Shown here: piece after piece, positions 1,215-63,694 of the stretch
Numbering within the stretch: position 1 is the stretch's first letter
Layout: each line of letters opens with the position of its first letter
Source of the DNA: an uncultured Gammaproteobacteria bacterium
GTDB taxonomy: Bacteria > Pseudomonadota > Gammaproteobacteria > GCA-001735895
Direction of reading: 5' to 3'
NCBI GenBank assembly: GCA_964651385.1
Contig: CAZYYM010000001.1
Location: 92,168 to 156,167, forward strand
DNA: 64,000 bases
The notes under the pieces: model-generated
Databases searched by the model: none
What the model saw: only the letters and a program-made list of their open reading frames with translations
Told to the model about the DNA's origin: nothing
Made by a program: the position numbers and the translations under genes

Positions 1215-2317
1215 TTATCCTCAGCCGATGCGGCAATGACGGGTGTCTGGCAAACGACATCGGCATTCTGACCCCGGTTGCGCAAGTAGTGATCCATCAG
1301 AACCAATGCCAGCATGGCTTCCGCAATCGGCGTCGCTCGAATACCGACACAGGGATCGTGCCTGCCCTTGGTTCTGATTTCAACAGGGTTACCGTCGACA
1401 TCGACACTATTTCCGGGTACATGCAAACTTGAGGTAGGCTTCAATGCGATATTGACAAGAATATCCTGGCCGGAAGTAATCCCACCGAGAGTCCCCCCGG
1501 CGTGATTAGACAAAAACCCGGCAGGCGATATTTCATCGCGGTGAACACTGCCTTTTTGTTCAATACTACTAAATCCGGCCCCTATCTCGACACCTTTAAC
1601 CGCGTTTATACTCATCATCGCATGTGCGATATCCGCATCAATCCGATCAAATATCGGTTCGCCCAGTCCCGGTGGAATTCCGCTGGCGATAACCGATATT
1701 TTTGCACCGATGGACTCGCCTTCTTTGCGTAACGCATCCATGTATTTCTCCATTTCAGAAACCTTACCTTTGTCCGGACAAAAAAAAGCGTTGTTATTGA
1801 CTTCACTCCAGTCAAACTTGTCCGGCTTTAATGGGCCGAGTTGGGAGAGGTAACCCCGAATTTGCATACCGCATTGCTCGGCCAGATATTTTTTGGCAAT
1901 GCCGCCAGCTGCAACACGCATCGCCGTTTCTCGAGCCGAGGACCGTCCGCCGCCGCGATAGTCACGTACCCCGTATTTCTGTGTATAGGTATAGTCCGCA
2001 TGGCCCGGTCGAAACTGCTTCATGATATTACCGTAATCTTTCGAACGCTGATCCTTGTTTTGAATGACCAGGGCGATAGGCGTACCCGTGGTTTTGCCTT
2101 CAAAGGTCCCCGATAATATCTGCACCGTATCGTCTTCGCGTCGCTGAGTGGTATACCGTGAAGTACCGGGCTTACGACGATCAAGGTCATGTTGTAAATC
2201 GACCTCGCTTAATTCAAGTCCCGGCGGGCAGCCATCAACAATGCAACCAATCGCAGTACCATGGCTCTCACCGAACGAGGTGACGACAAAAGACTTGCCA
2301 AAACTATTTCCTGACAT
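1211..2317 (-). CDS. aroC: Chorismate synthase
   Basis: 368 aa. The GxSHG and RSSARET motifs match AroC throughout. Confidence 0.95.
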
Positions 2318-2405
2318 TGAAATCCGACCTGTGGATTGAAAATATAACTATAATCGTTATCTAACGCATCAGCAGTCCAAATAATTCAGACACTCGATAA
2401 TTTAG

Positions 2406-2927
2406 ATGACCGAAAACCAGCATTCTACTAAAAAACTCGGCATGATGTTCACCCTCAGCGGCTGGATACTGGGTTTTTTATTACTGGGACTAATTTTCTC
2501 CAGGGTACTTGACAATCGAACCAATCCCAACCGTTCAATTGCGACGACTGCAACGGCGAACTATCAGGAAATAATCCTCCAGCGTAACCCCTTCGGACAC
2601 TATGTATTTGATGGTGAAATCAATCACAGACCAGTGACATTTCTGGTCGACACCGGTGCGACCATGACCGCTATTCCAGCTCAATTGAAAGACCGGCTTG
2701 GCCTAAAGGCAGGCCCTCCGTTTACCGTAACCACGGCCAACGGACTGGCTAAAGTCTATTCCACCCGCCTGGACAGTTTGAAGCTGGGAAATATTGTTCT
2801 CGAGGACATCAGCGCAAGTCTTAATCCCGGATTTACAGGTCAGGAAATTTTACTGGGAATGAATGTTCTGAAAAATATGGAATTGATTCAGCGTTCAGAT
2901 ACATTGATAATCAGGCAATACCATTGA
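2406..2927 (+). CDS. Membrane-anchored retropepsin-like (clan AA) aspartic protease
   Basis: N-terminal TM helix plus a DTGAT active-site motif (FLVDTGATMTAIP), typical of bacterial retropepsin-like proteases. Confidence 0.7.
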   Translation: MTENQHSTKKLGMMFTLSGWILGFLLLGLIFSRVLDNRTNPNRSIATTATANYQEIILQRNPFGHYVFDGEINHRPVTFLVDTGATMTAIPAQLKDRLGLKAGPPFTVTTANGLAKVYSTRLDSLKLGNIVLEDISASLNPGFTGQEILLGMNVLKNMELIQRSDTLIIRQYH

Positions 2928-3082
2928 ACCATCAAATTGAAAGCAGCACGATATGAATTTATCAAATTGTTATACATTTTGCTGAATTATCCGGAACTAA
3001 TCATTTACACTGATCTCTAAGCTGTCGTAATCCATTATTGGTTGCTTATAAATAAACACTAATTTTTTTGAGGAAAGAGTTC

Positions 3083-3337
3083 ATGAAAACAGTAAAAAAG
3101 GTATCAGGGGTCGCTTTGGCAGCAGCAGCAGCAGCAATGTTCGCAGTTGCGCCTATGAGTGGCGCCATCGCCGGCGAAAAAGCAGGTAAATGTTTCAACG
3201 TCAACTCCTGCAAAGGCACCAGCGCCTGTGCAACAGCCACTTCGAGCTGCGCCGGCCAAAACTCCTGCGCCGGTCAGGGTTGGGTTAAGCGTACAAAAAG
3301 TGAATGTGAAGGCGCCGGTGGTAAATTCGAAGCCTAA
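3083..3337 (+). CDS. DUF2282-type cysteine-rich secreted peptide (bufferin/BufA-like RiPP precursor)
   Basis: ATG at 3083 with an upstream GAGGAAAGAG RBS. Sec signal peptide with an Ala-rich h-region ending AIA|GE. The about 54-aa core carries 6 Cys at regular spacing (KCFNVNSCKGTSACATATSSCAGQNSCAGQ...SEC). It sits immediately upstream of DUF692 and DUF2063 genes. Confidence 0.7.
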   Translation: MKTVKKVSGVALAAAAAAMFAVAPMSGAIAGEKAGKCFNVNSCKGTSACATATSSCAGQNSCAGQGWVKRTKSECEGAGGKFEA

Positions 3338-3360
3338 GCTACGCTCAGTTCAGCAAGAAT

Positions 3361-3387
3361 GCACCGGCTGGTTCGGTGCATTTTTTT
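3361..3387 (+). terminator. Intrinsic terminator/attenuator between the precursor and enzyme genes
   Basis: GCACCG-gctggtt-CGGTGC followed by ATTTTTTT. It lies 24 nt after the precursor stop and 33 nt before the next start. Confidence 0.6.
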
Positions 3388-3419
3388 GCCTGCGATTCGC
3401 ACTGACATTGAGATAAGCT

Positions 3420-4256
3420 ATGCGACCCCAAACCGAAAAACCCTTCCTCGGCTTCGGCCTCGGACTACGTACCGAGCATTATGACGACATACTCGAACTG
3501 AAGCCAAAGCAGATAGACTGGCTTGAAATCATCAGCGAAAACTACATGGTCGATGGCGGCAAACCGCTTTATTATCTTGATACCATCCGTGAACAATATC
3601 CAATGGTCATGCACGGTGTATCCATGTCGCTCGGTAGTACCGATCCGTTGAATTACGATTATTTGAAGAAACTGAAAATACTCGTAAACCGGATCGAACC
3701 CGAATGGTTTTCCGATCACCTGTGCTGGACTGGAGTTGATCACAAGAATATGCACGACCTGCTGCCATTGCCTTATACCGAGCAGGCAGTGAATCACCTG
3801 GCGGACAGAATCTCGGCAGTGCAGGATTTCATGGGCAGGCAGATGTTAGTCGAAAACCTCTCCAGCTATATTACCTATTGCGACGACGCCATGACCGAAT
3901 GGGAGTTCCTCACCGCCATTGTCGAAAAGGCAGACTGCTATCTGTTACTCGATGTGAATAACATCTATGTCAGCAGTTTTAATCATCATTTCGATCCAAT
4001 TGAATATCTCGAAGGTGTCCCCGCAGAACGAATCTGGCAACACCACCTGGCTGGACATTCGAACGAAGGCAATTTGATCATCGACACTCATGATGCCGAT
4101 ATCATCGATCCGGTGTGGTCGCTCTACGAAGAGACCGCAAAATGCCTTGGGCCGGTTTCTACCATGATTGAACGCGACGGCAATATCCCCGAGCTTTCGA
4201 GTCTTTTGAATGAACTCGAACACGCGCAGCGCATCGCTAAACCCTACTACCAATGA
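3420..4256 (+). CDS. DUF692/UPF0276 protein (MbnB/BufB-like TIM-barrel, multinuclear non-heme iron enzyme)
   Basis: 278 aa. The N-terminal LGFGLGLRTEHY and the overall xylose-isomerase-like TIM-barrel pattern are typical of DUF692. It overlaps the downstream gene by 4 bp. Confidence 0.8.
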   Translation: MRPQTEKPFLGFGLGLRTEHYDDILELKPKQIDWLEIISENYMVDGGKPLYYLDTIREQYPMVMHGVSMSLGSTDPLNYDYLKKLKILVNRIEPEWFSDHLCWTGVDHKNMHDLLPLPYTEQAVNHLADRISAVQDFMGRQMLVENLSSYITYCDDAMTEWEFLTAIVEKADCYLLLDVNNIYVSSFNHHFDPIEYLEGVPAERIWQHHLAGHSNEGNLIIDTHDADIIDPVWSLYEETAKCLGPVSTMIERDGNIPELSSLLNELEHAQRIAKPYYQ

Positions 4257-5035
4257 GTCGATTACGCGAACTGCAATTACGATTTCAGGATTACCTGATC
4301 GGTATTAATGAAGATATTACAAGAGATATCGTCAGCACCCCCGAAGCGCTCGCCGAGCACCGACTCGGCGCTTATTACAATGCTTACCGCATCCGATTAA
4401 TCGATATTCTCGCGGTTGATTACTCCGCCGTCGAGAAGCACCTTGGTCGCCAGATCTTTGAAAACTTGACGCTCGATTACCTGGAGGAATGCCCATCAAC
4501 CGAACCGTCGGTGCGCTGGCTTGGCCAGAATTATGCTGAATATCTGGTTAAACATTGCGATAGAGATGATCATGAATTTCTCGCAGAGCTGGCTGGTTTC
4601 GAGTGGGCACAGGGTCGAATATTCGATGCTGAAGACGAAAAGGACCTGCTTCTGATCGACAATATGGCTCAGTTACCCGCCGAAGCCTGGCCGACACTCA
4701 AGATTCAATTTAAACCGGCACTGCAATGGCTTGACCTGTATTGGAATGTCTGCCCTTATTCCGTTGCACTTGATAGTGGTGAACCAACGCCGGAGCCACA
4801 TCGTGACGAATTTCCAGTACGCTGGTTACTCTGGCGAAAGAATCGAAACCCGAACTGGCGTTCACTCGAAGTTCATGAAGCCTGGGCAATCGAAGTAGCC
4901 CAACAGGGTGGAAACTTTGCCGAAATCTGTGCAGGACTTTGTGAGTGGATTTCGGAGGATCAGGTCGCTATCACTGCAGCGGGATTTTTGAAGCAGTGGG
5001 TTAGCGATGAACTTGTGGTCGGCGTAGATTACTAA
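4253..5035 (+). CDS. DUF2063 protein (BufC/MbnC-like partner of DUF692)
   Basis: 260 aa, translationally coupled (ATGA overlap) to the DUF692 gene. DUF692-DUF2063 pairing is canonical. Confidence 0.7.
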   Translation: MSRLRELQLRFQDYLIGINEDITRDIVSTPEALAEHRLGAYYNAYRIRLIDILAVDYSAVEKHLGRQIFENLTLDYLEECPSTEPSVRWLGQNYAEYLVKHCDRDDHEFLAELAGFEWAQGRIFDAEDEKDLLLIDNMAQLPAEAWPTLKIQFKPALQWLDLYWNVCPYSVALDSGEPTPEPHRDEFPVRWLLWRKNRNPNWRSLEVHEAWAIEVAQQGGNFAEICAGLCEWISEDQVAITAAGFLKQWVSDELVVGVDY

Positions 5036-5080
5036 ACACGACGTTAAAAGATTACACCATGTATCCATCCGTGTCCGGCA

Positions 5081-6166
5081 CTATAAACTTTTTCCTATCC
5101 AGGTTTCCGTAACGCCTAATTTTCCTACAATAGCACTGGAAAAGTCTTTAGCACTTTGCCTTGATTTAAATCCAGTAACAGCTATCCGGTAGCGCGTTTC
5201 TTCCTCGGATTCATGCACTTTTATCTGGGTACTGTAACCAACTGCTCGAAATTTCCTGTTTGCCTGTTTAGCGACGTCTTCAGAACGGGTAGAAAAGAGA
5301 TAGACTGAATAAGTAGCTGCTGCACTTTTTTCGCCATCAATTGACAATTGTTTTTCCCCGACTTTATCGGTTGTTACAGCTTCCTTATCAGTTTTTACAA
5401 TCACCTCGGCCTGATTTTTAAATTCCTTTGATTCTGCTAATAGCTTGTCATCCTGGATCCGGCGTACTTCTTGACCGGCTAGAGTTTCCTTCTGATTGAC
5501 TGCGGCTTCATCATTTTCAAGCCTTGAAGAATCCCCGCTATCTGGGAAATTCCAGTCATAAGAACCATTATCTTTGATTCGAATTTTGGTTCCTGCTTCA
5601 CTCAATACGATCGAATCTGAACTGATGGCACGGGTAATATGAACACTTCCAGACACTAATTCAATCAAAGACTGTCCATCTTGTCTGCTTACACAGAAAT
5701 GACCCACATGTCTTATTGTCAAAAACAGGTTGTTATCTACTCCTAATTTAAACCCGTTTTCCGGCTTGAGCGGCGAACCCAGAGTTATGCATATCCTACC
5801 GGTAATAATATACAGGTCTGCTCTATCATCAAATATTGTTGCTCCAGGACTGCTTTTATCCAATAATTGGATATCGGTATTCGCAAAGAGTTGCAATGCG
5901 ACACCGGCTTCAAGGTACATCTCGATACGACCCAAAACACCAGTGACAATATGATCACCGCTTTTCAACAGACTACTATTGGCCAGATCTGACTTCAGGT
6001 TATCTCGTTGCACCCAGACAGGTGGATTTTTTAAGCTAATAGAAGCGACAGGAGACGCCTGCAAAGGGGGCAAGCAAGCGAAACCGATAAACACTGTCAG
6101 CGCCCAGCCTATTTTTAGTATTGGCAATCTACCGAAAACTAAGACAAATCGATATAACATAGCCAT
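5081..6166 (-). CDS. Signal-anchored protein with a C-terminal SPOR (peptidoglycan-binding) domain
   Basis: N-terminal hydrophobic segment. The C-terminal 80 aa (YSVYLFSTRSEDVAKQANRKF...YRIAVTGFKSRQSAKDF) fit the SPOR fold pattern. Confidence 0.55.
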   Translation of the reverse strand: MAMLYRFVLVFGRLPILKIGWALTVFIGFACLPPLQASPVASISLKNPPVWVQRDNLKSDLANSSLLKSGDHIVTGVLGRIEMYLEAGVALQLFANTDIQLLDKSSPGATIFDDRADLYIITGRICITLGSPLKPENGFKLGVDNNLFLTIRHVGHFCVSRQDGQSLIELVSGSVHITRAISSDSIVLSEAGTKIRIKDNGSYDWNFPDSGDSSRLENDEAAVNQKETLAGQEVRRIQDDKLLAESKEFKNQAEVIVKTDKEAVTTDKVGEKQLSIDGEKSAAATYSVYLFSTRSEDVAKQANRKFRAVGYSTQIKVHESEEETRYRIAVTGFKSRQSAKDFSSAIVGKLGVTETWIGKSL

Positions 6167-6207
6167 TTTTTCTATTGCTCATTCATAGTTTAAATATAGT
6201 ACCCCTG

Positions 6208-7065
6208 CTACTTTCCTCCATAGTGCATTCCGATAAATTCTGCTAGCTTGCGCGCTGCAGTCGACGCCTTATCCGCATCATAGTGCATACCTAATTCTAC
6301 CTGTTGCAAGCGTCGCATCCGTTCTGCACTGCCCATGATAATCATGCCTTCACTAACCGTGTTTTTCGCCAGCGTGGTAACGCCAAGTCCTGCCATCACG
6401 CCCGCTCGAATACCGCCGTAGTTCTGACTGGTATAGACGATGTGCCAACGCTTGTCGAGTGCGTCCAGTGCATCGATCATGCGTTGCCGATAGATACAGC
6501 CTTCAGGGGCAACAATCAATGGCAACGGATCACGCTGACTGGCGTTTGAGTCGGGCCCACATACCCAGACGATATCCTCGTACCAGCTTTCCTTGTAATA
6601 ATCGGTCTGAGTGCCATCGTGTAGCGCCAAGACCAGGTCAAAGGCATCGCGTTTTAGCCGGTTGAGCAGGTTCACCGAGAGGTCGCAGGTGACCTGTAAC
6701 TGTACTTGCGGGTAAGACTGTGAAAATCGACTCAGTACCTCCGGGAACAGTCGCGACGCAGCAAATTCGTTCGGTATTCCCAGGTGCACTGAACCTTCAA
6801 CGTCCTGTTGTAATAGTTTTACCACTGCTTCATCGTTTAAAACGAGAATTTTTCGGGCATAATCGGTTAATTGCCGACCCGAATGGCTAAGCACCAGTTC
6901 ACGACTACTGCGTTCGTATAACCGCGTCTTCAGTAATTCTTCAAGGCGTTTAATTTGCAGGCTGACGGCTGGTTGTGAACGCCCGAGTTTGTCCCCGGCG
7001 CGTGTAAAACTACCGAGATCGGCGATAGTGACGAAGGTCCTTAATAAATCAATCGGTAAATTCAC
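6208..7065 (-). CDS. LysR-family transcriptional regulator
   Basis: The N-terminal helix-turn-helix [37 protein letters not shown] is typical of LysR regulators. It is divergent from gcvP. Confidence 0.85.
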
Positions 7066-7191
7066 ACTTCAATCATTTGCATTGTTAATGAATACATTAT
7101 AACTATAAACTATGCCAATATACGAATTGATTTAGAATATGAAAATTGGCACGAAGCGGCCCTGTCTTTCACGAATACGAGGAATTTTAAT

Positions 7192-10077
7192 ATGATGCTA
7201 AATCTCGACCTGAAACTGTCTGATCTTGATATTCGAACCGACTTTATTCGCCGTCATATCGGTCCCGGTTCGGTCGACGAACCGGCGATGCTTGCCGAAC
7301 TGGGTATGACGAGCCTGGATGAATTGCTCGACAAGGTTGTCCCCGAATCCATCCGTCGAAATAAACCACTAGCCGTAAAAGGAAGTCATACCGAACGCGA
7401 AGTACTTGACCGACTGTACGAAATTTCGATTCGTAATCAATTATATAAATCGTTTATCGGTATGGGTTACTACAATACACAAACACCTACTGTTATCGAA
7501 CGAAATCTGTTACGCAATCCAGCATGGTATACCGCTTATACGCCGTATCAAGCCGAAATATCGCAGGGCCGACTTGAAGCCCTGTTAAATTTCCAGACCA
7601 TGATTAGCGACCTGACCGGTATGGAACTGGCAAATGCTTCGATGCTCGATGAAGCGACTTCGGCAGCAGAAGCGATGACACTTTGCCAACGCATGTCAAA
7701 GAGTAAAAGCAAAAAATTCTTCGTTGCCGACTCCTGCCATCCACAAACTATTGCCGTTGTGCGTAACCGCGCCCAACATCTGGATATCGAGGTGATAGTG
7801 GGTAACCCTTTTGACAATTTCGGCGATCTCGAACTATTCGGGATACTTTTGCAGTACCCCAGTTCAACCGGTGAGATTCATAACTATAGCGACCTGGTTG
7901 CCAATATGCACGAAGGTAAAACGCTGGTCGCCGTTGCTGCGGATTTACTCAGCCTGACCTTGCTCACGCCACCCGGTGAATTTGATGCCGATGTGGTAGT
8001 CGGTAGCTCGCAACGATTTGGCGTACCACTTGGATACGGTGGCCCACATGCGGCCTTTATGGCTACCCGAGAGGCATTCAAACGTTCCATGCCCGGTCGC
8101 CTGATAGGTGTTTCGGTTGACACCCGTGGTGAACCCGCCATGCGGCTTGCATTACAAACCCGTGAACAACATATTCGTCGAGAGAAAGCCACCAGTAATA
8201 TCTGTACTGCACAGGCCCTGCTTGCGATCATGGCGAGCATGTACGCGGTATATCATGGCCCGGACGAAATTCGTCGCATTGCGCAGCGTATCCACCGATT
8301 AACGGTTTTACTCGCTGAGGGTTTACGCGAGCTTGGTTTGACGGTACCGACCAGACATTACTTCGACACAATTACGGTAAGCACCGGTAATGCTACAGAA
8401 TTCATCATGGCAGCGGCTCGCGCCGAAAAAATGAACCTTCGACAAGTTGACAGTGAAACCGTTGGAATCTCGCTCGATGAGATTGCCACACGCGAAGATG
8501 TCCGAACCCTGTTTAATATTTTTACCCATGACCTGGGTGCCGAGGTTTCTATCGACGATCTCGACAAACGCATCGGTTCTGCGTTACCAAAGGAATTGAT
8601 ACGTACCAGTAAATACCTGACCCATCCGGTTTTTTGCGAACATCACTCAGAAACCGATCTGATGCGTTATATGCGCAAGCTAGCTGACAAGGATCTGGCC
8701 CTCGACCGCAGCATGATTCCACTCGGATCCTGTACCATGAAGTTGAATTCAGCGACACAATTGATTCCCGTGACCTGGCCCGGATTTGGACGCATCCACC
8801 CATTCGTACCGCTCGATCAGGCACAGGGATACCAACAACTGTTTGTTGAATTCGAACAGATGCTTTGCGCCTGTACCGGTTACGACGCCATTTCACTGCA
8901 ACCGAATTCTGGCGCGCAGGGCGAATATTCTGGATTACTGGCGATCAAGGCATACCATCGGAGCCGCGGTCAGAGTCACCGTCATATCTGCCTGATTCCG
9001 GCATCTGCCCACGGCACTAATCCCGCCTCGGCGCAAATGGCCGGCATGAAAGTCGTCGTCGTTGCTGTTGCCAAAAGCGGCAATATCGATCTCGACGATT
9101 TACGTGCCAAAATCGATAAGCACGGTGATGATCTTGCCGCTATCATGATAACTTATCCGTCTACCCATGGTGTATTCGAAGACAATGTTACCGACGTCTG
9201 CAAAATGGTTCATGACCATGGCGGTCAGGTTTATATCGATGGCGCCAACATGAATGCGATGGTCGGGGTGTGTGCGCCGGGCAAATTTGGCGGTGATGTT
9301 TCGCATTTAAATTTACACAAAACTTTCAGCATTCCCCACGGTGGAGGTGGACCGGGTGTCGGGCCTATTGGGGTAAAATCTCATTTAAAGCCCTTCCTAC
9401 CCTCGACTAGTTTGAATCACAATAGCGACGGCGTCGGAGCTGTCGCCGCAGCGCCATTTGGTAGCGCAGGAATTCTGCCGATTAGCTGGGCCTATATTAC
9501 TTTGCTCGGTCGCCAGGGGCTGCCCAAAGCAACTGCTACCGCAATTTTAAATGCAAACTACGTCGCCAAACGTTTGAATGAACATTTTCCGGTTCTCTAC
9601 ACAGGCCCGAATGGTCTGGTTGCGCACGAATGTATTATCGACACGCGCATCATCAAGCAAACCTCGGGCATTACCGTCGACGACATAGCCAAGCGCCTGA
9701 TCGATTACGGCTTTCACGCACCGACCATGTCCTTCCCGGTACCGGGCACCTTGATGATTGAACCCACCGAGAGTGAATCGAAAGAAGAGATTGATCGTTT
9801 CTGCGACGCGATGATCGCGATCCGCGAAGAAATTCGCGAAATAGAAGAGGGCAATATGAATGCTGAAGACAATCCGCTTAAAAATGCGCCGCATACCAGT
9901 GACATGGTTTGCGCGGATGAATGGAACCACGCCTATAGCCGTGAACAGGCTGCATTTCCGCTGGCTTCGCTACGCAACTATAAATACTGGCCACCGGTCG
10001 GCCGCGTAGATAATGTCTATGGCGATACCCATTTAATCTGTTCCTGTCCGCCGTTGTCCAATTACGAAGACGAATAA
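7192..10077 (+). CDS. gcvP: Glycine dehydrogenase (decarboxylating), glycine cleavage P-protein
   Basis: 961 aa, colinear with GcvP. Confidence 0.95.
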
Positions 10078-12213: not shown

Positions 12214-12822
12214 ATGTCGGTAGATACCCAGGAACCTTCCAGCGTAAAAGTATGGGATCCTTTAGTCAGGGTTTTCCACTGGGGTCTGGTGCTTTCATTT
12301 TTTCTCGCTTTTATTACTGAGGACGACTGGATAAGCCTGCATATTCAGGCGGGATATGCTGTGACCTTACTCATTGGTTTCCGGCTGATCTGGGGTTTTA
12401 TCGGAACCCGCCATGCGCGATTTATGACCTTTGTTAAATCGCCCTCCGTAGTACTGTCCTACCTCAAGCATATGCTGTCCTTAAGGGTTCCACATTATCT
12501 GGGCCACAATCCGCTGGCGGCTGTCATGGTGATAGCGCTGCTGATCAATATCACATTGATATCTTTCACTGGATTAGTATTGATTGCTGGCGAGGGACAG
12601 GGCCCATTGGCGAATTCTGTCTTTTCAAACTGGCCAGGTGACTGGATCAACGACATCCACGAATTTTTCGCCAATTTCACCCTGCTATTGGTAGTTGCAC
12701 ATGTTTCTGGCGTCGTACTCAGCAGTCTATTAGAGGGTGAGAATTTGGTAATGGCGATGATAACCGGGCGCAAAAAAGCCCGCACCGACTGGCAGGATAA
12801 TAAATCGCGGGATGATGAATAA
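12214..12822 (+). CDS. Cytochrome b561 family protein (Ni/Fe-hydrogenase b-type cytochrome-like)
   Basis: 202 aa with 4 TM segments. RVFHWGLV near the N-terminus and conserved His positions. Confidence 0.7.
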   Translation: MSVDTQEPSSVKVWDPLVRVFHWGLVLSFFLAFITEDDWISLHIQAGYAVTLLIGFRLIWGFIGTRHARFMTFVKSPSVVLSYLKHMLSLRVPHYLGHNPLAAVMVIALLINITLISFTGLVLIAGEGQGPLANSVFSNWPGDWINDIHEFFANFTLLLVVAHVSGVVLSSLLEGENLVMAMITGRKKARTDWQDNKSRDDE

Positions 12823-13030
12823 AGTGATATCACTTATAAAACAGATAACCCCGCTATCCGCAAGTGTTATTTCTAATGCGGTTCATGCCAGCCAGGCGCT
12901 ATTGAAGAAAATCGACAATTGTTTTTTCGCACAACGGCAAGTAGACGTTTGGGCATGGCTGCGGACTACTCAAAAATCGGATATCTAAACCTGGCTCTCA
13001 AGCTAGTGAACTCCTGCGAGGCAATATCTA

Positions 13031-13552
13031 ATGAATCAAAATAAAAGCTTTATCGCAGGATCAATCATAATGTCCGGTATTCTGATTTTCAGCCTGTATG
13101 GCATGGGCCAAACCTGGGCATCTTCTAAGGCCAAACCAGATCCACTATACCTCGGAGAATGTGGTAGCTGTCACATGCCCTACCCGGCACAATTACTACC
13201 ACCGCAAAGCTGGCAAAATATCATGGCACAGCTGGAAGATCATTTTGGTGAAAATGCCGAACTCGATACACCATCAGCACAGGCTATAGAAACCTATTTA
13301 ACCGAGGCAAGCAGACCCTCGAGGAACTCATACCGGAAACTGTTGAGAAACCTGGGCAACCGGGCGCCATTGCGTATCACCAAACTACCCTATTTTATTC
13401 ACAAACACGATGAGATTCCTTCACGGTATGTCGCTGCGAATGATAAAGTAAAATCGCTCGGTCAGTGCAATGCCTGCCATAAACACGCGGAGCAAGGTGA
13501 TTTTGATGAAGATAGCATATTTATTCCTGGCGTTGGTTCTTGGGACGATTAG
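13031..13552 (+). CDS. Diheme cytochrome c
   Basis: Signal peptide. Two CxxCH heme-binding motifs (CGSCH and CNACH). Confidence 0.7.
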   Translation: MNQNKSFIAGSIIMSGILIFSLYGMGQTWASSKAKPDPLYLGECGSCHMPYPAQLLPPQSWQNIMAQLEDHFGENAELDTPSAQAIETYLTEASRPSRNSYRKLLRNLGNRAPLRITKLPYFIHKHDEIPSRYVAANDKVKSLGQCNACHKHAEQGDFDEDSIFIPGVGSWDD

Positions 13553-13811
13553 CAGCTTCCTGCGTGCCGATGACGACGTCAGTTCGGCTCAAATTCGTCA
13601 CATGGTTGAAAACGGTGAAATACTTCCCCTGCAATCCATCATGAGGCAGTACCCAGCTCAGATTTATGGCAAGTTACTCGACCTGGAAGTTAAATGGGAA
13701 CGCCAGAAACTGGCTTACGAACTGGAATTCCTTCGCGCCGATGGCAAAGTTATTGAGCTGAAAATTGATGCTCGAAATGGGCAGTTACTCGAACGGGAGA
13801 TAGAAGATTGA
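13506..13811 (+). CDS. PepSY domain protein
   Basis: ATG at 13506 gives MKIAYLFLALVLG..., a signal peptide followed by a roughly 70-aa PepSY-like domain. It overlaps the end of the cytochrome c gene. Confidence 0.55.
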   Translation: MKIAYLFLALVLGTISSFLRADDDVSSAQIRHMVENGEILPLQSIMRQYPAQIYGKLLDLEVKWERQKLAYELEFLRADGKVIELKIDARNGQLLEREIED

Positions 13812-14470
13812 AGTTGCTGCTAGCCGAAGACGACATCCAGCTGGTCGAGTTTTTACGACCCAAATTACAGCATTCAGGATATACCGTGGAATGGGCCGAT
13901 AATGGCATTGACGCCGAATTTCTGGCGTTTGAGGAAAATTTCGATGGTATTATTCTCGATCTGGGCTTACCCCTAAAACCGGGCCTTGAGGTATTAATAA
14001 ACTGGCGGCAGCGGAGTATGACCACACCGGTAGTAGTTTTGACTGCTCGCGATTCCTGGCAGGAGCGCGTCGATGGATTGAAAGCAGGCGCTGACGATTA
14101 CCTCGGCAAACCGTTCCACTTTGAAGAACTGTCTGCGCGCTTGCAGGCCATATTGCGACGCCGTTTTGGGCACTTGGATAATATTCTGGAATTTCATAAC
14201 CTCAGGCTTGATCTCGACAATCAAACCATGACTTCTCCCCGGGGCGAAAAACACCAACTCACGGCTATCGAATTCCGTCTGTTGCGCCATTTGATGTTAA
14301 ACACCAATAAAATTATTTCTAAAACGGAATTAAGCGAACATGTTTACGAAGAAGAGCAGCTCAAGGACAGCAATGTCATCGAGGTTTACATTAATCGTTT
14401 GCGTAGCCATCTGGGAAGATCATGGATCAAAACCTTTCGAGGTCAAGGTTACCGGCTTTCGGAGCCTTAA
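13808..14470 (+). CDS. OmpR/PhoB-family response regulator
   Basis: REC domain (LLAEDD...ILDLGLP...) and a winged-helix C-terminus. Probable TTG start. Confidence 0.85.
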   Translation: MKLLLAEDDIQLVEFLRPKLQHSGYTVEWADNGIDAEFLAFEENFDGIILDLGLPLKPGLEVLINWRQRSMTTPVVVLTARDSWQERVDGLKAGADDYLGKPFHFEELSARLQAILRRRFGHLDNILEFHNLRLDLDNQTMTSPRGEKHQLTAIEFRLLRHLMLNTNKIISKTELSEHVYEEEQLKDSNVIEVYINRLRSHLGRSWIKTFRGQGYRLSEP

Positions 14471-14665
14471 ACCTGGAAACCCCAGTTGGATCACTAAAGA
14501 ATGCACACACACTTGACACATCGAAATACCGCATCACCGGGAAATCTGATAGCCGGATTGTCACCAATAAGGTGACGACGTATTCCACAAACCACCAGGC
14601 ACATCAATATCTTGCACATTATTTTTGCGGCCGGCTGAAGTTTCCAGGTTAACTCAGATAAGGCA

Positions 14666-15970
14666 ATGTATTCTCTCAAGAAAACAATCACTCGAAACCT
14701 AATAATCAATATGATTGCGGTAATGCTTGGCCTGTTAGTCATACTCTATTTTTCAATGCAACAAATACTGCAGGACTATATTTTGACGAGATTACGGGCT
14801 GATACCGAAAGCCTGGTCAGCGTCGCCCAGCTCGATCAAAATAAAACCTGGAGTGTAAACCCGACACAAATGTCGACGGTCTATGACCGTGTAAAGTCCG
14901 GTCATTACTACCGTCTCAGTACAGAAAGGCAAACCATTACTTCCCGTTCGTTATTCGACGTTGTAATGCCGATGCCAAGTAGTCCGTTAGTTAAATCAGG
15001 GCATTACCTGGCCCAGGGGCCAGGCCATGAAGTCTGGTTGGTCCGCTATCAGCAGGTGAATAAAAATAGCCAGCTCGTCAATATCTGGATAGCTGAAAAT
15101 ATAACTCCGCTACGACAACAATTAATTCGATATTCGGCCTATGCCGTTATCCTGCTACTGATAACAACTTCGATACTTATATATCTACAGCGGCGAACGC
15201 TGGAACGCTCGTTTCGTATCTTCGAAGACCTACGTCAAAATCTATCCTCGGTACGCCATAGAGAAATTGAAAAAACTGGCCTGCAGGTGCCCTGGGAAAT
15301 TATGCCACTGGTGAATGAAATCGAAATTCTGGTCGATCAGTTACGAAATCGAATCAATCGAACCCGTCATGCTATCGGCAATCTTGCCCATGAACTAAAG
15401 CGACCGATACAGCTACTATCGCTACAACAGGAATTGGATGGCAGTAGTGATCAGATTAAACCACTTCTGGAAATACGCGCGATACTGGAGCGCGAGCTAA
15501 AAAGGGCAAAGATTTCGGGATCCCAGGGCGCCGGGGGTACATTTAATATAAATGAAGAACTGCCTTATATGATCAACATACTGGCCAAAATTTATCCTCT
15601 AATCGAAATCAAATTTGAAAATACAGAAAGCATTCAAACACTCGATTTGGACAGGGATGATATGCTCGAGTTGACAGGAAATATACTCGACAATGCCTGT
15701 AAATTTGCCTCGCATTTAGTCAGGCTTCAAATCGTTACTATCGAGCAATCAATAAAATTAATTTTTGACGATGATGGTCGAGGCATCGAGCAGACAGATA
15801 TCGAAGCCGTAAAAAAGCGTGGTGTGCGGCTCGATGAAAGCCACGAAGGACATGGCTTAGGTCTCAGTATTTGCCGGGATATTATCAAGAGTTATTACGG
15901 TGATATGTCGTTTACCTCATCGCCGATGGGAGGCCTACGGGTTAGCGTCACAATACCCCTGAAATCTTAA
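14666..15970 (+). CDS. Sensor histidine kinase (2 TM, periplasmic sensor domain)
   Basis: H-box HELKRP, N-box NILDNACKFA and G-boxes DDDGRGI and GHGLGLSI. Confidence 0.85.
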   Translation: MYSLKKTITRNLIINMIAVMLGLLVILYFSMQQILQDYILTRLRADTESLVSVAQLDQNKTWSVNPTQMSTVYDRVKSGHYYRLSTERQTITSRSLFDVVMPMPSSPLVKSGHYLAQGPGHEVWLVRYQQVNKNSQLVNIWIAENITPLRQQLIRYSAYAVILLLITTSILIYLQRRTLERSFRIFEDLRQNLSSVRHREIEKTGLQVPWEIMPLVNEIEILVDQLRNRINRTRHAIGNLAHELKRPIQLLSLQQELDGSSDQIKPLLEIRAILERELKRAKISGSQGAGGTFNINEELPYMINILAKIYPLIEIKFENTESIQTLDLDRDDMLELTGNILDNACKFASHLVRLQIVTIEQSIKLIFDDDGRGIEQTDIEAVKKRGVRLDESHEGHGLGLSICRDIIKSYYGDMSFTSSPMGGLRVSVTIPLKS

Positions 15971-27932: not shown

Positions 27933-28337
27933 TTAAACTCCAGTAAGTAATTCAAACGCGGCTTGTTTGGCCGCTTTCTTATCAAAAGTTACCGTTTGCT
28001 CGCAGCCGCTAGATTCGTTTACTCTGGCTAAAAGATGGTCGGGAAAATCCACGTTCGAATTTCGATAATCGCTCAGTGCCCGCCAGATAATCTCTGAATT
28101 CATCACCTCCAATTGTCCTACCTGTAATAGATGTTCAATAATCGAGGCAATTTCCATCCTGCTTTGTTGATAATTGCTTTCCAGCACCCACGCCAATTCA
28201 CACAGGACAATTTGACCAATAAAGCAGGGGCTTTCTTCGGTGCAACAGGTTTCTATAAATTCGGAGGCCTGTGCTGCCTGTTTGACGTCATCCTGAACTA
28301 GATAGCGTACCAGTACATTTGTATCCAGTCCCTTCAA
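27933..28337 (-). CDS. vapC: PIN-domain toxin VapC
   Basis: 134 aa. LDTNVL N-terminus. Overlaps the upstream antitoxin gene. Confidence 0.8.
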   Translation of the reverse strand: MKGLDTNVLVRYLVQDDVKQAAQASEFIETCCTEESPCFIGQIVLCELAWVLESNYQQSRMEIASIIEHLLQVGQLEVMNSEIIWRALSDYRNSNVDFPDHLLARVNESSGCEQTVTFDKKAAKQAAFELLTGV

Positions 28338-29314: not shown

Positions 29315-31267
29315 TTATTCCAGGGTAGCGGAAAACATCACTTGTGTTTTACTTAAAATTTTCGCAAAAGGAATGTGCTCAACGCTGCCAAATAGCGGAT
29401 GTTGGGTAAGTTTGTTTTGGCTTAGCCGGGGTGATGTGATGCCGCATAGAAAACGCGTGAGTATGTAGGCGTTGGCTAAAATCGTTGTACGTTCCGAGGT
29501 CAGTTTTTCTACCTGCCGCCAATAGCTATTTTCAACATCTTCCACTGGTCGAGTCGCCCAGTGTGGCGAAAGTTTGCTGTTATTCTGATTACAACCGCTA
29601 CAGTGCCCACAGTCCTGTAAGCGTTGTTCGCCGAAATGGGCGGCGAGTGCATTGGTCTGGCAGCCACCAAGTGCGACCAGCTCAAGTACCTGTTGCAGAC
29701 GTTTTATTTCTGCCTGTTCACGTTTCTGAAAACGCTGATGTAATTCGGCTGCCAGGGATACGATGGATTGCGGGTGCCGCAGGATGCGATAGGACTGACG
29801 CACGCCGGCGACTTTTAGTTCCAGTAATTGCTGTTGCGCCAGCCAGTCGAGGGCGGCGAGAATCCGTTCGCGGCTGGCGCCAAGGTCTGTGGCAGCTTGC
29901 GCAGGGTCGAGTTTGAACCAGGTTCTCCCCTTCACCGCCCGTCGAAATAATGCGCCAAGAAATTCCTTTCTCTCTCCTTCGAAACGATCAAGAATTTGAC
30001 TGGAACTTTGCAGTGGTTTGAAACTGTAGTCGGTATAGAAGGGTGTGCCACCCAGCAAATAACCATCTAGTTCAAGATAAGTGAGCAAGGTGCGTAACAC
30101 CAGAGTTCGAATATCATGCTCAAAGGAAAGGGCGTAAAGGCTTACTTCCAGGTTATGTCCAACCGGATACTGCGCGAAAAGCCCTTCGATCAATTGTAAA
30201 ATTGACGACTCATCAGGGGTGTCACCATAGATGAAATTTTCCAGAACATTAAGGTCATCGACGCAAGCGAGCATATGGCAAATGGAGGTTTTTCCGTCGC
30301 GTCCCGCACGGCCAATCTCCTGTGAATAATTTTCCAGGCTTTTGGGCAGGTTGTAGTGGTAAACGGCTCGAATGTTAGCCTTATCGACACCCATACCAAA
30401 GGCAATAGTCGCTACTACAATGGCGTGTTCAGAGGACATAAACCATTCCTGAACTTCATTGCGCAACTCCGTTTTTAGCCCGGCATGATAGGCCCGGGCG
30501 GGTAAACCGGCATCTGCTAACTGACTCGCTACCTGCTCGGCGGTTTTTTGCTGGGTGACATAAACAATGACGGTAGCGGGTGGTTGTGTCTGGATCTGTT
30601 TGAGTAAAATTTGATCGCGTGTTTCCGTATTCACCACCTGGGTGACGATGTTGAGATTGGCTCGGTAAAAGCCGGTACGCACCGCGCAGTCTGCCGAAAT
30701 ATCGAACTGACGGCAGATATCATCCAGCACCGGTGGGGTTGCGGTAGCCGTCAACGCAAGAATACGTTCAGCTTTGAATTCTCGCGCAAAGCCCGCCAGT
30801 TTGAGGTAATCGGGGCGAAAGTTATGCCCCCATTCTGAAATGCAATGGGCTTCATCCACCGCAAATAATGAAATATCGATAGGTTTCAGGCTTTCGCGGA
30901 AACGTTCATTATTGAAGCGCTCGGGAGCCACATACAGTAGACGCAGCGAACCATTTTTAAGCTGGCCCATCACGTCGCGGTATTCATCGGCGCTGAGGCT
31001 GGAATCGAGTCGTCGGGCGTTAATGCCACGCAAAGCAAGGGCGTCGATCTGATCTTTCATCAGCGCAATCAATGGCGACACTACCAGTGTTACACCGGGT
31101 AATAACAGGGCAGAGAGCTGGTAACACAGAGATTTGCCACCTCCGGTGGGGAATACCGCAGCGCTAGAATTGCCTTGCAACAGGTGCCGAATGACCTGTT
31201 CCTGTCCGGGGTGGAATTCGCCGTATCCGAAATATTGTCGCAGCTGCTGACGTAAGCTATCCGTCAA
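29315..31267 (-). CDS. RecQ-family ATP-dependent DNA helicase (non-canonical paralog without HRDC)
   Basis: 650 aa. FPTGGGKSLCYQ, DEAHCISEWGHNFRPDY and a CGHCSGC zinc motif. Confidence 0.85.
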   Translation of the reverse strand: MTDSLRQQLRQYFGYGEFHPGQEQVIRHLLQGNSSAAVFPTGGGKSLCYQLSALLLPGVTLVVSPLIALMKDQIDALALRGINARRLDSSLSADEYRDVMGQLKNGSLRLLYVAPERFNNERFRESLKPIDISLFAVDEAHCISEWGHNFRPDYLKLAGFAREFKAERILALTATATPPVLDDICRQFDISADCAVRTGFYRANLNIVTQVVNTETRDQILLKQIQTQPPATVIVYVTQQKTAEQVASQLADAGLPARAYHAGLKTELRNEVQEWFMSSEHAIVVATIAFGMGVDKANIRAVYHYNLPKSLENYSQEIGRAGRDGKTSICHMLACVDDLNVLENFIYGDTPDESSILQLIEGLFAQYPVGHNLEVSLYALSFEHDIRTLVLRTLLTYLELDGYLLGGTPFYTDYSFKPLQSSSQILDRFEGERKEFLGALFRRAVKGRTWFKLDPAQAATDLGASRERILAALDWLAQQQLLELKVAGVRQSYRILRHPQSIVSLAAELHQRFQKREQAEIKRLQQVLELVALGGCQTNALAAHFGEQRLQDCGHCSGCNQNNSKLSPHWATRPVEDVENSYWRQVEKLTSERTTILANAYILTRFLCGITSPRLSQNKLTQHPLFGSVEHIPFAKILSKTQVMFSATLE

Positions 31268-31349
31268 GTTTGACTCCTTTCATTTTGCCAGTCTGGAAGT
31301 ATAATTCCGTTGAAAAATTTAATCATATTATTACGGAACATACCCTCAA

Positions 31350-34300
31350 ATGAGTCAATCTTTGACTGAACAGGATCCCTTTATTTTCGATATTGAACAA
31401 CTTTATGCGGTTGCCCCGGAACATATTATCCGCCAGGGGCTGGCCCATTTTCAACATAATAGTGTGACCGAACTGGGCTGCGAAGGAGACCGGCTGCAAG
31501 GCTATGTAGAGGACAGGGAATCAGGTGAAATCCTGACAACAGGGCTTGATTATGATGGAGATGGAAACCTCGATATCAGCTGTGACTGTTCGAAAGAATC
31601 GTCATTTTGCCGCCATGCGATCGCGCTGCTATACGCCTACGCCAATGACAAGGAAGGCAATGATGAGCTTTGCGGTGCTGTCGATAATGCGATTGAAGAA
31701 AGGGTCAAGCGCGGACGTGCCGAAGTTGAAGTGAAAAAGCAGGGTGGTAAGCCGGGTTTTGGTCTTTGGAGCGCACGTTCGATCAGTGTGGCGAGCCACT
31801 TTTCCGGCAGTTACCGGGTGCATATTCGTTCACTCACACAGAGGGCCAATTACTGTAGCTGCCCGGATTTTACCGGTAATCAGCTCGGAACCTGCAAACA
31901 TATTGAAGCGACACTGCAAAAAATCAGCAAACAACGTAATTATGCCCGGCTCAAACGAGAGGGCATCAGCTACCCTTATATTTTTCTCAATTGGGGTGTG
32001 CAGAACGCGCCGCAGATTGCGTTGCATCGCTGTGCAGAAAGTCATACCGGTTTAGATTCAATCCTTCAGGAGTACTTCGATGATCAGGGGTTGTTCAGCG
32101 GTCGGCTGCCGGATGATTTTTTCCGGCTGGCCGAGCAACTGGAAAATCGTGAAGATATAGACCTGGGGCAAGATGCGCTGGATTTTGCCAAAAGAAAAGC
32201 TGCCGATGCGGTGCATGCGGCACGCGCCCGCACCATCAGGGAAGAAATCATTAAATCCGCTGGACGGCTGCCGGGCATCAAGGCCAAGCTTTATCCGTAT
32301 CAGGTCGAAGGCGTTGCCTTCCTGGCCGCCAATGGGCGCGCCTTGCTGGCGGATGACATGGGGCTAGGCAAAACCCTGCAAGCCATAGCCGCTGCCAGCT
32401 GGTTGCATCAACATGCCCACGTCGAGCGCGTATTGATCGTTTGCCCGGCGTCTTTAAAACACCAGTGGGCCAGGGAAATCAAACGGTTTAGCGGACTGGA
32501 GGTGGAAATTATTCAGGGCAATGCGGCAGCCCGAGGTGTATTGTACCGGCGTACCTGCGTGTTCACTATCATCAACTATGAGCTGGTATTACGCGATCTT
32601 TCGGTGATCAATGAACAGTTCAGCCCCGATCTGCTGATTCTGGATGAGGCGCAGCGCATCAAAAACTGGCGTACGCAGATTGCAACGGCGATTAAACTGA
32701 TCCCCTCGCGTTATGCCTTTGTGCTTTCCGGCACGCCGCTGGAAAACCGCCTGGAAGATCTCTACAGCCTGATGCAGGTCGTCGATCCCCGTGTGCTGGG
32801 ACCTTTGTGGCGATACCTGATTGATTTTCATATTACCGACGAAAAAGGCAAGGTGCAGGGTTATCGCAATCTATCTGAATTACGTATGCGCCTGGCGCCA
32901 GTGATGTTACGGCGGGATCGACGCCTGGTGGCGGATCAACTGCCGGCAAGAATCCAGCAGCAAATCGACTTGCCACTCACTGATAAACAGCGCGAATTAC
33001 ATGATGCCGCGATGTCAGCCGCCGGATCGTTAGCGCAGATCAGCAAAAAACGTCCCCTCACACCCGGCGAGCAACATCGTATGATGGCGGCACTGCAACA
33101 GGCGCGCATGGCCTGCGATGCGGCCGGTCTGGTGGATAAGGAAACGCCGGGTGCGCCCAAGCTGGATGAGCTGGATAGATTGCTCGACGAACTGTGCGTG
33201 CAAGGTGGGCGTAAAGCGGTGGTATTTTCGCAGTGGACACAGATGACCGAAATGGTCGAGCGGCGTATCAACAAACTTGGGCTGGGCTGTGTCCGCCTGC
33301 ATGGCGGCGTGCCGACCAGCAAACGCGGAGAATTGATGGACCGCTTTCGCGATAATGATTCAATCCAGGTTTTTATCTCTACCGATGCGGGTGGCGTTGG
33401 TCTTAATCTGCAAAGTGCTTCGGTACTGATTAATCTCGATATTCCATGGAACCCGGCAGTGCTGGAACAGCGCATCGCACGCATCCACCGGCTGGGTCAA
33501 CGAGAAAACGTACAGGTGATATTGCTGGTGACGCCTGAAGGCTACGAAGGTCGGGTGATGGAACTGGTGCAGAATAAACAGAATCTGTTTGATAATGTGA
33601 TCGACCCGGATGCCAGTGAGGACGTGGTCGGTGTATCGCCCAAATTGCTGGAAAAACTGCTGCAAGACCTGACGGTTAGAGAGCAAGCCGGAGCCGCGAG
33701 TGCTAATACCGAAACGGATTTGGAAGGCGCACAAAATGCTGCCGCGGATCTGGCCGATAATGCTATCCAACCCAGCATGGAGAAGCGCGATACAGAAGCC
33801 GAAATTACCCGCTGCATCGAAACACTGCAGCATCGCCTGGGTTCACGGATAGAGCGCATTATGGGCGCGAATGGCGGGCTGTTGGTGATCATCGATCATG
33901 TCGATGAGGCTGAGGAACATTTTTCTCAGCAGCTTTCTGCAACGAGTGACATTCAGATTGCGCTAATCGATCTGCCTAGCCTGAATAGCTTACGCCGGCT
34001 CGGACTCTTATCGGAACAGCAGCCAGTTTATTATCATTCGGCAGACACTCGGCAACAGGATGTGACTCCGGCACTGATGATATTCGCCAATCAAAGATTG
34101 ACCGCAGCAGAGACCCTGTTGCAGCAGGACATGACCGCCCCGGCGATGGATTTAATCGTCGCAGCATTGCTTGCAACCGCCGCGGTACGCGCAGGTTTAG
34201 CGCATGCCATCACTATCGAGCAGGCTGGTATCTGGGTCTATAGCGAAGCCCTGCCGAATGGATGGCTTGATGAGTCTCAGGCCAGTCTAATCATGCGTGT

Positions 34301-60743: not shown

Positions 60744-63694
<2,951 letters not shown>

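Follow-up and report, generated by a model that had tools for sequence, protein, structure and literature searches.

A three-gene cluster of an uncultured marine gammaproteobacterium assigned by sequence to the Buf2 (BUF_6/12Cys) bufferins

The closest described relative of the locus reported here is the founding buf2 BGC, CCNA_02999-03001 of Caulobacter vibrioides, which consists of buf2ABC without a bufD1-like gene (Leprevost et al. 2024, PMC11626156). Caulobacter Buf2 is induced by copper and protects against it, and its peptide shows a shift of -4 Da on central Cys and of -18 Da in total, together with absorbance at about 305 nm (PMC11626156). For Buf1, both BufB and BufC are required for modification, the in vitro reconstitution used the two proteins together, and DoxX is dispensable for modification as well as for copper protection (PMC11626156). 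The gig cluster of Cupriavidus metallidurans has been classed among the bufferin BGCs (PMC12452194), a Buf2 from Legionella pneumophila subsp. fraseri is cited in the literature, and MNIO-PME1 pairs have been found to install 5-thiooxazoles broadly (PMC13097082). For a related MNIO/DUF2063 cluster of Microbulbifer, neither expression nor a response to copper was observed (PMC12538549), and a copper role can thus not be assumed for every member.

Here we describe a locus on the chromosome of an uncultured marine gammaproteobacterium, contained in a 64-kb stretch of DNA referred to below as the window, which by its likeness to these systems is very probably a canonical Buf2-type cassette in the order bufA2-bufB-bufC. 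The locus and its surroundings comprise the following features:

2406-2927, plus strand: gene for a membrane-anchored clan-AA aspartic protease, just upstream of bufA2
2993-3020, plus strand: candidate ECF/sigmaE-type bufA2 promoter (GGAACTA at 2993-2999, 16-nt spacer, TCTAA at 3016-3020)
3083-3337, plus strand: bufA2, 84 aa, predicted bufferin-2 precursor
3355-3387, plus strand: intrinsic-terminator-like hairpin (GC-rich stem 3360-3367/3373-3380, T7 at 3381-3387)
3420-4256, plus strand: bufB, 278 aa, predicted MNIO (formerly DUF692), a multinuclear non-haem iron oxidative enzyme
4253-5035, plus strand: bufC, 260 aa, predicted DUF2063-type MNIO partner (PME1, RRE-like C-terminal half)
5081-6166, minus strand: SPOR-domain gene, convergent with bufC and followed by LysR (minus strand) and gcvP (plus strand)

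The original prediction had described a bufferin-type RiPP cluster in which a Sec-signal peptide with six Cys is followed by an MNIO/DUF692 gene and a DUF2063 gene overlapping it by 4 bp, the whole adjoining a convergent SPOR gene and then LysR-gcvP. This outline was borne out: the peptide is encoded at 3083-3337, its signal being judged by inspection; the two genes after it match PF05114 and PF09836 and overlap in the ATGA at 4253-4256, as read from the sequence; the named neighbours are seen in the window; and BufA2 and BufB both pass their NCBIfam equivalog cutoffs. The Pfam assignments proposed for the three proteins held for DUF692 and DUF2063, whereas that of the precursor to DUF2282 failed, the BufA2 (BUF_6/12Cys) signature being matched instead.

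BufA2 scored 75.8 bits against the equivalog NF050166 (Cu_RiPP_BufA2; cutoff 60), over profile positions 2-78 of 79, and 645 homologues were found. Its predicted Sec signal peptide spans residues 1-30 (3083-3172), in which a basic n-region (MKTVKKVSG), an Ala-rich h-region and an AIA/GE cleavage motif without a lipobox Cys can be recognized by eye, and is followed by a core of 54 aa (3173-3334). The six Cys, at precursor positions 37, 43, 49, 56, 62 and 75 (pattern Cx5Cx5Cx6Cx5Cx12C), are all invariant in an alignment of 36 sequences, and their spacing of 6, 6, 7, 6 and 13 is kept in 78 of 86 related loci. No EGKCG repeats were found in the peptide, and no second bufA2 among the window ORFs scanned. 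An AlphaFold2 model of the precursor has a strand/helix order resembling the published description; its confidence is low (pLDDT 56.6), so that both the C37-C75 disulphide and the set of Cys taken as modified are drawn solely by analogy.

The enzyme is assigned on similar grounds. BufB gave 371 bits against PF05114 (MbnB_TglH_ChrH) and 380 bits against the equivalog NF050167 (MNIO_BufB; cutoff 310), and among solved MNIO structures its homologues include 3BWW, 8HCI and 7DZ9; PDB 3BWW was matched at E = 7.8e-51, and TglH and MbnB were matched as well. Residues H65, H100, E145, D178, N181, H209, H213, D222, H224, E251 and D253 are invariant across 62 sequences; by the MbnB structures, we take these His/Asp/Glu/Asn columns to be putative iron ligands. 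The N-terminal domain of BufC reached 58.6 bits against PF09836 (DUF2063; cutoff 27.2). As a single sequence BufC had no match in PDB, and a profile of 32 orthologues matched PDB 3DEE (NGO1945, the PME1 prototype) weakly (E = 0.0022) with both halves co-linear, which weakly suggests that the C-terminal half is RRE-like. The A-B-C order was found in 62 loci of Gamma-, Alpha- and Betaproteobacteria and of other phyla, with bufC directly 3' of bufB in most of them; one of the 62 (L065) belongs to Legionella pneumophila subsp. fraseri.

The window thus carries the same three genes as C. vibrioides buf2ABC: a six-Cys BufA2 with a Sec signal, which in the window peptide is predicted by eye, the MNIO BufB and the DUF2063 protein BufC, in a cluster that contains neither doxX nor a sigma/anti-sigma gene. 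The likeness lies in this gene content and in the passing of NF050166 and NF050167 by the window proteins; the differences are the host, which is not an alphaproteobacterium, and the candidate promoter, which is sigmaE/AlgU-like in the window whereas the Caulobacter cluster is SigF-dependent. With the Buf1/gig clusters (DUF2282-MNIO-DUF2063-DoxX; C. vibrioides buf1ABCD, C. metallidurans gig) the locus has the MNIO and DUF2063/PME1 pair in common and, by analogy, may share a Sec-exported precursor, thiooxazole chemistry and copper binding; the Buf1 precursor, however, has four Cys and a PF10048 signature, neither of which is present in the window peptide, and the doxX and sigF/nrsF genes often found in Buf1 clusters are missing from the window cluster. 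The captophorins (oxazolin/HvfABC, fontiphorin, gonophorin, bulbicupramide) likewise rely on an MNIO-PME1 pair that converts Cys to 5-thiooxazole for Cu binding, a parallel that would extend to the window only by analogy, and the clusters of H. influenzae and Neisseria are under ECF-sigma control. Captophorin precursors are built of EGKCG or KC repeats, in contrast to the spaced Cys of the window peptide, and the window proteins fall short of the oxazolin equivalogs, with BufB at 295.9 under the HvfB cutoff of 360 and BufC at 44.9 under the HvfC cutoff of 142. Methanobactin MbnA/MbnB/MbnC also involves an MNIO superfamily enzyme that oxidises Cys of a RiPP copper chelator, but there a leader peptide takes the place of the Sec signal, and the product is a secreted chalkophore with oxazolone-thioamide groups; BufB, at 57.5 bits, is far under the cutoff of 325 of the MbnB equivalog TIGR04159, and its partner is a DUF2063 protein, not MbnC.

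The four-gene reading of the original prediction, in which a Buf1/gig-type (DUF2282) cluster has lost DoxX and forms a new minimal variant, rightly noted that a DoxX gene is absent. None was detected anywhere in the 64 kb, either among the window ORFs or in the six-frame translation, with a profile of five Pfam-verified DoxX sequences from relatives, and the sole 3-TM ORF of up to 260 aa in the window is a cytochrome b561. The interpretation is nonetheless barely credible and is refuted by the family scans. Some close relatives have a weak precomputed PF10048 match, which speaks for it and indicates that Buf1 and Buf2 are distantly related; the window peptide itself has no PF10048 (DUF2282/BufA1) match at E<=0.01 or even at E<=1, passes the BufA2 equivalog cutoff and has six Cys instead of four. 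A DoxX gene lies within 2 kb in only 3 of the 62 bufA2-bufB-bufC loci and is missing from the other 59, and in relatives bufC adjoins unrelated genes with no doxX remnant. Since the founding buf2ABC is also without doxX, the three-gene layout is the Buf2 norm, not a minimal variant, and the missing DoxX is no argument against Buf2 membership. On these sequence criteria the window cluster is assigned to the separate Buf2 (BUF_6/12Cys) family of bufferins and not to the DUF2282/BufA1 type implied by a gig-type architecture. That the aspartic protease upstream is a fourth, lineage-specific member processing the bufferin is most improbable as well. This reading is favoured by the aroC(-)/protease(+)/bufA2BC synteny, which every locus of the close clade retains, including those with different outer flanks; yet three related contigs (L087-L089) keep aroC-protease-LysR-gcvP without any buf genes, and on this ground the protease was rejected as a member. 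More distant loci have no protease homologue near bufA2, the bufA2 gene has its own conserved candidate promoter downstream of the protease gene, and a leader protease of its own would be superfluous for a peptide with a predicted Sec signal. The buf-less contigs are also evidence that buf2ABC is a self-contained presence/absence cassette of 2.1 kb between conserved housekeeping genes.

Two elements may bear on the expression of the cluster. The motif upstream of bufA2, whose -10 element lies 62 nt from the ATG, is similar to GGAACTT-N16-TCAAA, the consensus of E. coli sigmaE (PMC1312014), and we consider it a candidate promoter. In the form (G/T)GAACT(T/A)-N16/17-TCTAA it is invariant in all 12 of the close-clade loci, where spacer and flanks vary (mean column identity 53%). 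The motif occurs at a single site in the window, but 9 of 100 shuffles also give one, so that this occurrence is not significant and the support for the motif comes from its conservation across relatives. It was discarded as a general Buf2 trait, since no locus outside the close clade has it upstream of bufA2. The scanned ORFs of the window yielded neither sigma or anti-sigma factor genes nor copper-resistance or copper-specific genes. The second element is the hairpin between bufA2 and bufB, which was not listed by the terminator consensus scan and was recognized by folding (-32.1 kcal/mol for the intergenic region, z = -3.56) and by a separate scan with controls. A hairpin followed by a T-run within 100 nt after bufA was present in 36 of the 62 loci; coding controls gave 1/62, 1/62 and 6/59, and the stretch after bufC gave 1/57. 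The stem sequences differ among lineages; the structure is likely a partial terminator or attenuator. The only match in an Rfam scan of 2300-7300, to sroD, stayed below threshold (27.3 bits, cutoff 50); it covers the bufA2 3' end and the terminator, and we judged it to be a hairpin artefact.

By homology to the characterised systems, the following course can be proposed. Transcription of bufA2 would probably start from the candidate ECF (sigmaE/AlgU-like) promoter, lying 62 nt before the ATG, and a leaky terminator after bufA2 would probably leave precursor mRNA in excess of enzyme mRNA. The 84-aa precursor would be synthesised in the cytoplasm, where, before export, BufB and its partner BufC would convert the central C43, C49, C56 and C62 to 5-thiooxazoles by 4-electron oxidations, a DoxX protein presumably not being needed in the Buf2 pathway. 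The modified peptide would then be exported via Sec and cut by signal peptidase I after AIA30, and the outer C37 and C75 may, by analogy, form a disulphide. The expected product is a folded periplasmic peptide of 54 residues, about 18 Da below the unmodified core with its calculated monoisotopic mass of 5361.38 Da. This peptide would chelate Cu(I)/Cu(II) and buffer copper or envelope stress.

Both the chemistry and the role in this scheme have competitors. It is very unlikely that the enzyme makes oxazolone-thioamide pairs as in methanobactin: these are isomers of 5-thiooxazoles, and earlier papers on oxazolin and MovA mistook one for the other, but later work reassigns the MNIO-PME1 products as 5-thiooxazole (PMC13097082), and neither the low MbnB score nor the lack of an MbnC-type partner fits a methanobactin pathway. 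An unlikely, though not negligible, alternative keeps the 5-thiooxazole chemistry and has the peptide, under sigmaE-type control, respond to another metal or to general envelope or oxidative stress (e.g. HOCl). The conserved candidate promoter, closer in form to the envelope-stress sigmaE consensus than to a Cu-sensor operator, points in this direction, as do the homologous H. influenzae cluster in the HOCl-responsive RpoE2 regulon (PMC7907618), the Microbulbifer cluster without copper response, the MerC-Buf2 fusions in the literature, which suggest roles with other metals, and the scan of window ORFs that turned up no copper-specific genes. Against it, the only Buf2 studied experimentally is copper-induced and copper-protective (PMC11626156), and every characterised 5-thiooxazole peptide binds Cu (PMC13097082). 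As regards the marine gammaproteobacterial clade, we put forward tentatively, and with more doubt than conviction, that buf2ABC is gained and lost as one self-contained 2.1-kb cassette, combined with RpoE/AlgU-type general envelope-stress control, in place of a dedicated copper-responsive ECF sigma, and with a conserved leaky terminator that may fix the precursor:enzyme ratio.

The cluster adds one example to a very large RiPP family, for which curated models exist and other members have been characterised experimentally. Its significance hardly goes beyond correct annotation, and its main value is corrective: the absence of DoxX is not unusual in BufA2-type clusters. The sigmaE-like footprint, the widespread post-bufA2 hairpin and the cassette-like presence and absence should be of incremental help to work on Buf2 expression and regulation. 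Were the envelope-stress cassette reading true, an extra regulatory layer without mention in the bufferin literature searched would be added, and Buf2 would form part of the core envelope-stress regulon.

Three co-directional genes lie between 3083 and 5035, with a SPOR-domain gene, a LysR regulator gene and gcvP as neighbours, as the original prediction had described. The features that bear on the cluster are listed here, the three buf genes being taken from the ORF map.

2406-2927, + strand: aspartic protease of clan AA (TIGR02281, retropepsin-like), N-terminal TM segment; flanked by aroC and bufA2 in all close relatives
2993-2999 (GGAACTA) and 3016-3020 (TCTAA), + strand: promoter-like motif, with a footprint across the close clade
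3083-3337, + strand: bufA2, 84-aa ORF
3420-4256, + strand: bufB, 278-aa ORF
4253-5035, + strand: bufC, 260-aa ORF, whose ATG overlaps the bufB TGA (ccaATGAgtc)
5081-6166, - strand: SPOR gene, 361 aa, C-terminal SPOR domain, convergent and 3' of bufC

Judged from its sequence, the cluster belongs to the Buf2 bufferins (formerly BUF_6/12Cys), because BufA2 and BufB pass their NCBIfam equivalog cutoffs and those for HvfB, ApyH, ChrH and MbnB are not reached. BufA2 (MKTVKKVSGVALAAAAAAMFAVAPMSGAIA followed by GEKAGKCFNVNSCKGTSACATATSSCAGQNSCAGQGWVKRTKSECEGAGGKFEA) scored 75.8 bits against NF050166, "BufA2 family periplasmic bufferin-type metallophore" (cutoff 60), and had no Pfam match at E<=0.01. 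BufB scored 380 bits against NF050167, "MNIO family bufferin maturase" (cutoff 310), and fell below the NCBIfam cutoffs for HvfB (295.9 vs 360), MbnB (57.5 vs 325), ApyH and ChrH. The proposal of a bufferin-type RiPP cluster was thus upheld by the two equivalogs, and its DUF692 and DUF2063 genes matched Pfam PF05114 (MbnB_TglH_ChrH; 371 bits) and PF09836 (58.6 bits), respectively. Its subfamily was not: the 84-aa peptide had no match to PF10048 (DUF2282), even at E<=1, and passed the BufA2 equivalog, so that a DUF2282/Buf1 or gig-type identity was rejected.

By inspection, the BufA2 N-terminus shows a basic n-region, then a hydrophobic core rich in Ala, and an AxA motif for cleavage. Its six Cys (positions 37, 43, 49, 56, 62 and 75) are invariant in an alignment of 36 sequences, and their spacing (6, 6, 7, 6, 13) is kept in 78 of 86 related loci from several proteobacterial classes and other phyla; metagenomes were the main source of the 645 homologues found at E<=1e-3. 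BufB is homologous to the solved MNIO structures 3BWW (E = 7.8e-51), TglH 8HCI and MbnB 7DZ9/7TCR. Eleven of its residues are invariant across 62 orthologues (H65, H100, E145, D178, N181, H209, H213, D222, H224, E251 and D253), and we take this His/Asp/Glu/Asn set to be the putative ligands of a multinuclear iron centre, by analogy with MbnB structures. No PDB relative of BufC was found with the single sequence as query; a 32-orthologue profile matched 3DEE (N. gonorrhoeae NGO1945; E = 0.0022) with co-linear N- and C-terminal halves, and 3DEE is the PME1 prototype (PMC13097082).

The absence of DoxX had been taken as the mark of a possible minimal three-gene variant. The absence itself was confirmed: a 5-sequence profile built from the Pfam-verified DoxX protein of the related locus L069 found no match among the window ORFs or in its six-frame translation, where the sole 3-TM ORF of <=260 aa is cytochrome b561. 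To place this result, loci were surveyed using one genome per species, which gave 80 loci encoding BufA2 relatives, plus six metagenomic loci; 62 of these carry bufA2, bufB and bufC. DoxX, detected with the L069 protein and its profile, lay <=2 kb from the cluster in only three of the 62 (L069, L072 and L020). The founding buf2 cluster of C. vibrioides also has no counterpart of bufD1, and its strains carry the name buf2ABC (PMC11626156). The three-gene layout is therefore the archetype and norm for Buf2, and the notion of a minimal variant falls. In the same species, deletion of bufD1 (doxX) left both Buf1 modification and copper protection unaffected (PMC11626156). Three further profile matches (L048 710-1213, L052 5417-5917 and L079 3083-3937) are DoxX genes directly upstream of an orphan bufA2, with no bufB or bufC detected in the available sequence, which may mean that DoxX can pair with BufA2 without the maturase genes.

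Genes 3' of bufC are heterogeneous across the surveyed loci. In two of them (L051 7857-8468 and L084 6792-7394; Cocleimonas) a convergent rhomboid-family intramembrane protease gene follows bufC by 19-25 bp, and both also bear tandem bufA2 copies. The close relatives of the window locus (peptide identity 72-94%), which are without exception MAGs or metagenome contigs from uncultured Gammaproteobacteria, share aroC(-), the aspartic protease gene(+) and bufA2BC. Three related loci without buf genes (L087-L089) have the order PmbA-DarP-aroC-protease-LysR-gcvP-sdaA, with a protease-LysR gap of only ~35 bp. Because these loci keep the protease beside LysR-gcvP, buf2ABC and its candidate promoter (~2.1 kb, 2928-5040) behave as a presence/absence (indel) cassette amid conserved housekeeping genes. 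The protease was rejected as a cluster member on the evidence of the buf-less relatives, the absence of a homologue near more distant Buf2 loci and the candidate bufA2 promoter, which is conserved and sits 3' of the protease gene. The product of the SPOR gene has a signal/TM N-terminus and matches Lsa33-like proteins weakly in its central part. The gene itself probably entered by an insertion of its own; its stretch has a lower GC (0.42), and it was found in none of the related loci, where bufC adjoins LysR, gcvP or other genes. Beyond it lie the LysR gene (-) and gcvP (+). The other window ORFs scanned have housekeeping roles or look like regulatory or defence genes unrelated to the cluster; neither a sigma factor nor a copper-specific system was found among them.

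Upstream of bufA2, alignment of the window with 11 close loci revealed an invariant (G/T)GAACT(T/A)-N16/17-TCTAA in a region of 53% mean identity, followed by a conserved CGTAAT and a Shine-Dalgarno GAGG. The motif is very similar to the sigmaE consensus of E. coli (GGAACTT, preferred 16-nt spacer, TCAAA; PMC1312014). Its lone occurrence in 64 kb is without significance by itself, the support coming from the phylogenetic footprint, and it is clade-specific, being absent 5' of bufA2 in loci outside the close clade. Control of bufA2 by an ECF sigma factor would match other MNIO-PME1 clusters, which are governed by SigF in Caulobacter (PMC11626156), RpoE2 in H. influenzae (PMC7907618) and SigE in Neisseria. 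A published survey placed sigma/NrsF genes in Buf1 BGCs and not in Buf2 BGCs; in L063, a Spirochaetia MAG locus, a gene at 3836-4462 encodes an NrsF anti-sigma factor (PF06532, 58.5 bits) and is near a rearranged Buf2-type cluster with bufB before bufA.

Between bufA2 and bufB, a spacer of 82 nt includes a strong hairpin with T7 directly after it (3360-3387), and the whole spacer folds at -32.1 kcal/mol (z = -3.56). A single rule was applied throughout: a hairpin of dG <= -10 kcal/mol lying within 100 nt, with >=5 T among the 8 nt that follow it. By this rule, 36 of 62 loci have a hairpin after bufA. As controls, coding windows gave 1/62, 1/62 and 6/59, and the region after bufC gave 1/57. Stem sequences vary between lineages. 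We read the hairpin as a putative partial terminator that would yield excess precursor transcript, an arrangement also present in other RiPP operons. By word search, neither of the two main bufferin papers discusses it. In Rfam, 3302-3385 (+) matched the sroD sRNA below threshold (27.3 bits against a gathering score of 50, E = 0.03); the match spans the bufA2 3' end and the hairpin, and is probably an artefact of the latter.

By homology with characterised systems, BufB and BufC would oxidise the four central precursor Cys in the cytoplasm to 5-thiooxazoles (-4 Da each), Sec would export the peptide, signal peptidase would remove residues 1-30, and C37 and C75 would form a disulphide. The resulting 54-residue periplasmic peptide, with a computed unmodified monoisotopic mass of 5361.38 Da and an expected shift of ~-18 Da on maturation, would bind copper. 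These steps have been demonstrated for Buf1 and Buf2 of C. vibrioides (PMC11626156), and the heterocycle assignment across MNIO-PME1 systems (PMC13097082). Least certain of all is what triggers the system physiologically: copper, envelope stress in general or oxidative stress.

Elsewhere in the window, genes at 12214-15970 (+) encode cytochrome b561, a dihaem cytochrome c, a PepSY-domain protein, an OmpR-type response regulator and a histidine kinase; they may form a redox- or metal-sensing two-component unit, by position unrelated to the buf cluster. The region 29315-34388 holds two divergent helicase genes: one for a RecQ-family protein of 650 aa that looks truncated (matched only over the RecQ N-terminal 350 residues), the other for a 1012-aa Snf2-family protein with sub-threshold matches to the defence helicases ZorD, DrmD and DpdE. 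Together with a PIN-domain gene at 27933-28337, they may form an island of defence or mobile genes. Three ORFs adjoin leuS, at 58071-60026 (-; 651 aa), 60054-60644 (-; 196 aa) and 60744-61229 (-; 161 aa), with no match in the single library scanned for each (NCBIfam for the first, Pfam for the others).

The window cluster is an uncharacterised addition to a well-described and very abundant family, and current NCBI models would name it automatically. What the analysis adds to knowledge of that family is modest: a candidate promoter with its footprint, a terminator-like hairpin that is widespread inside the clusters, and a distribution like that of a cassette.
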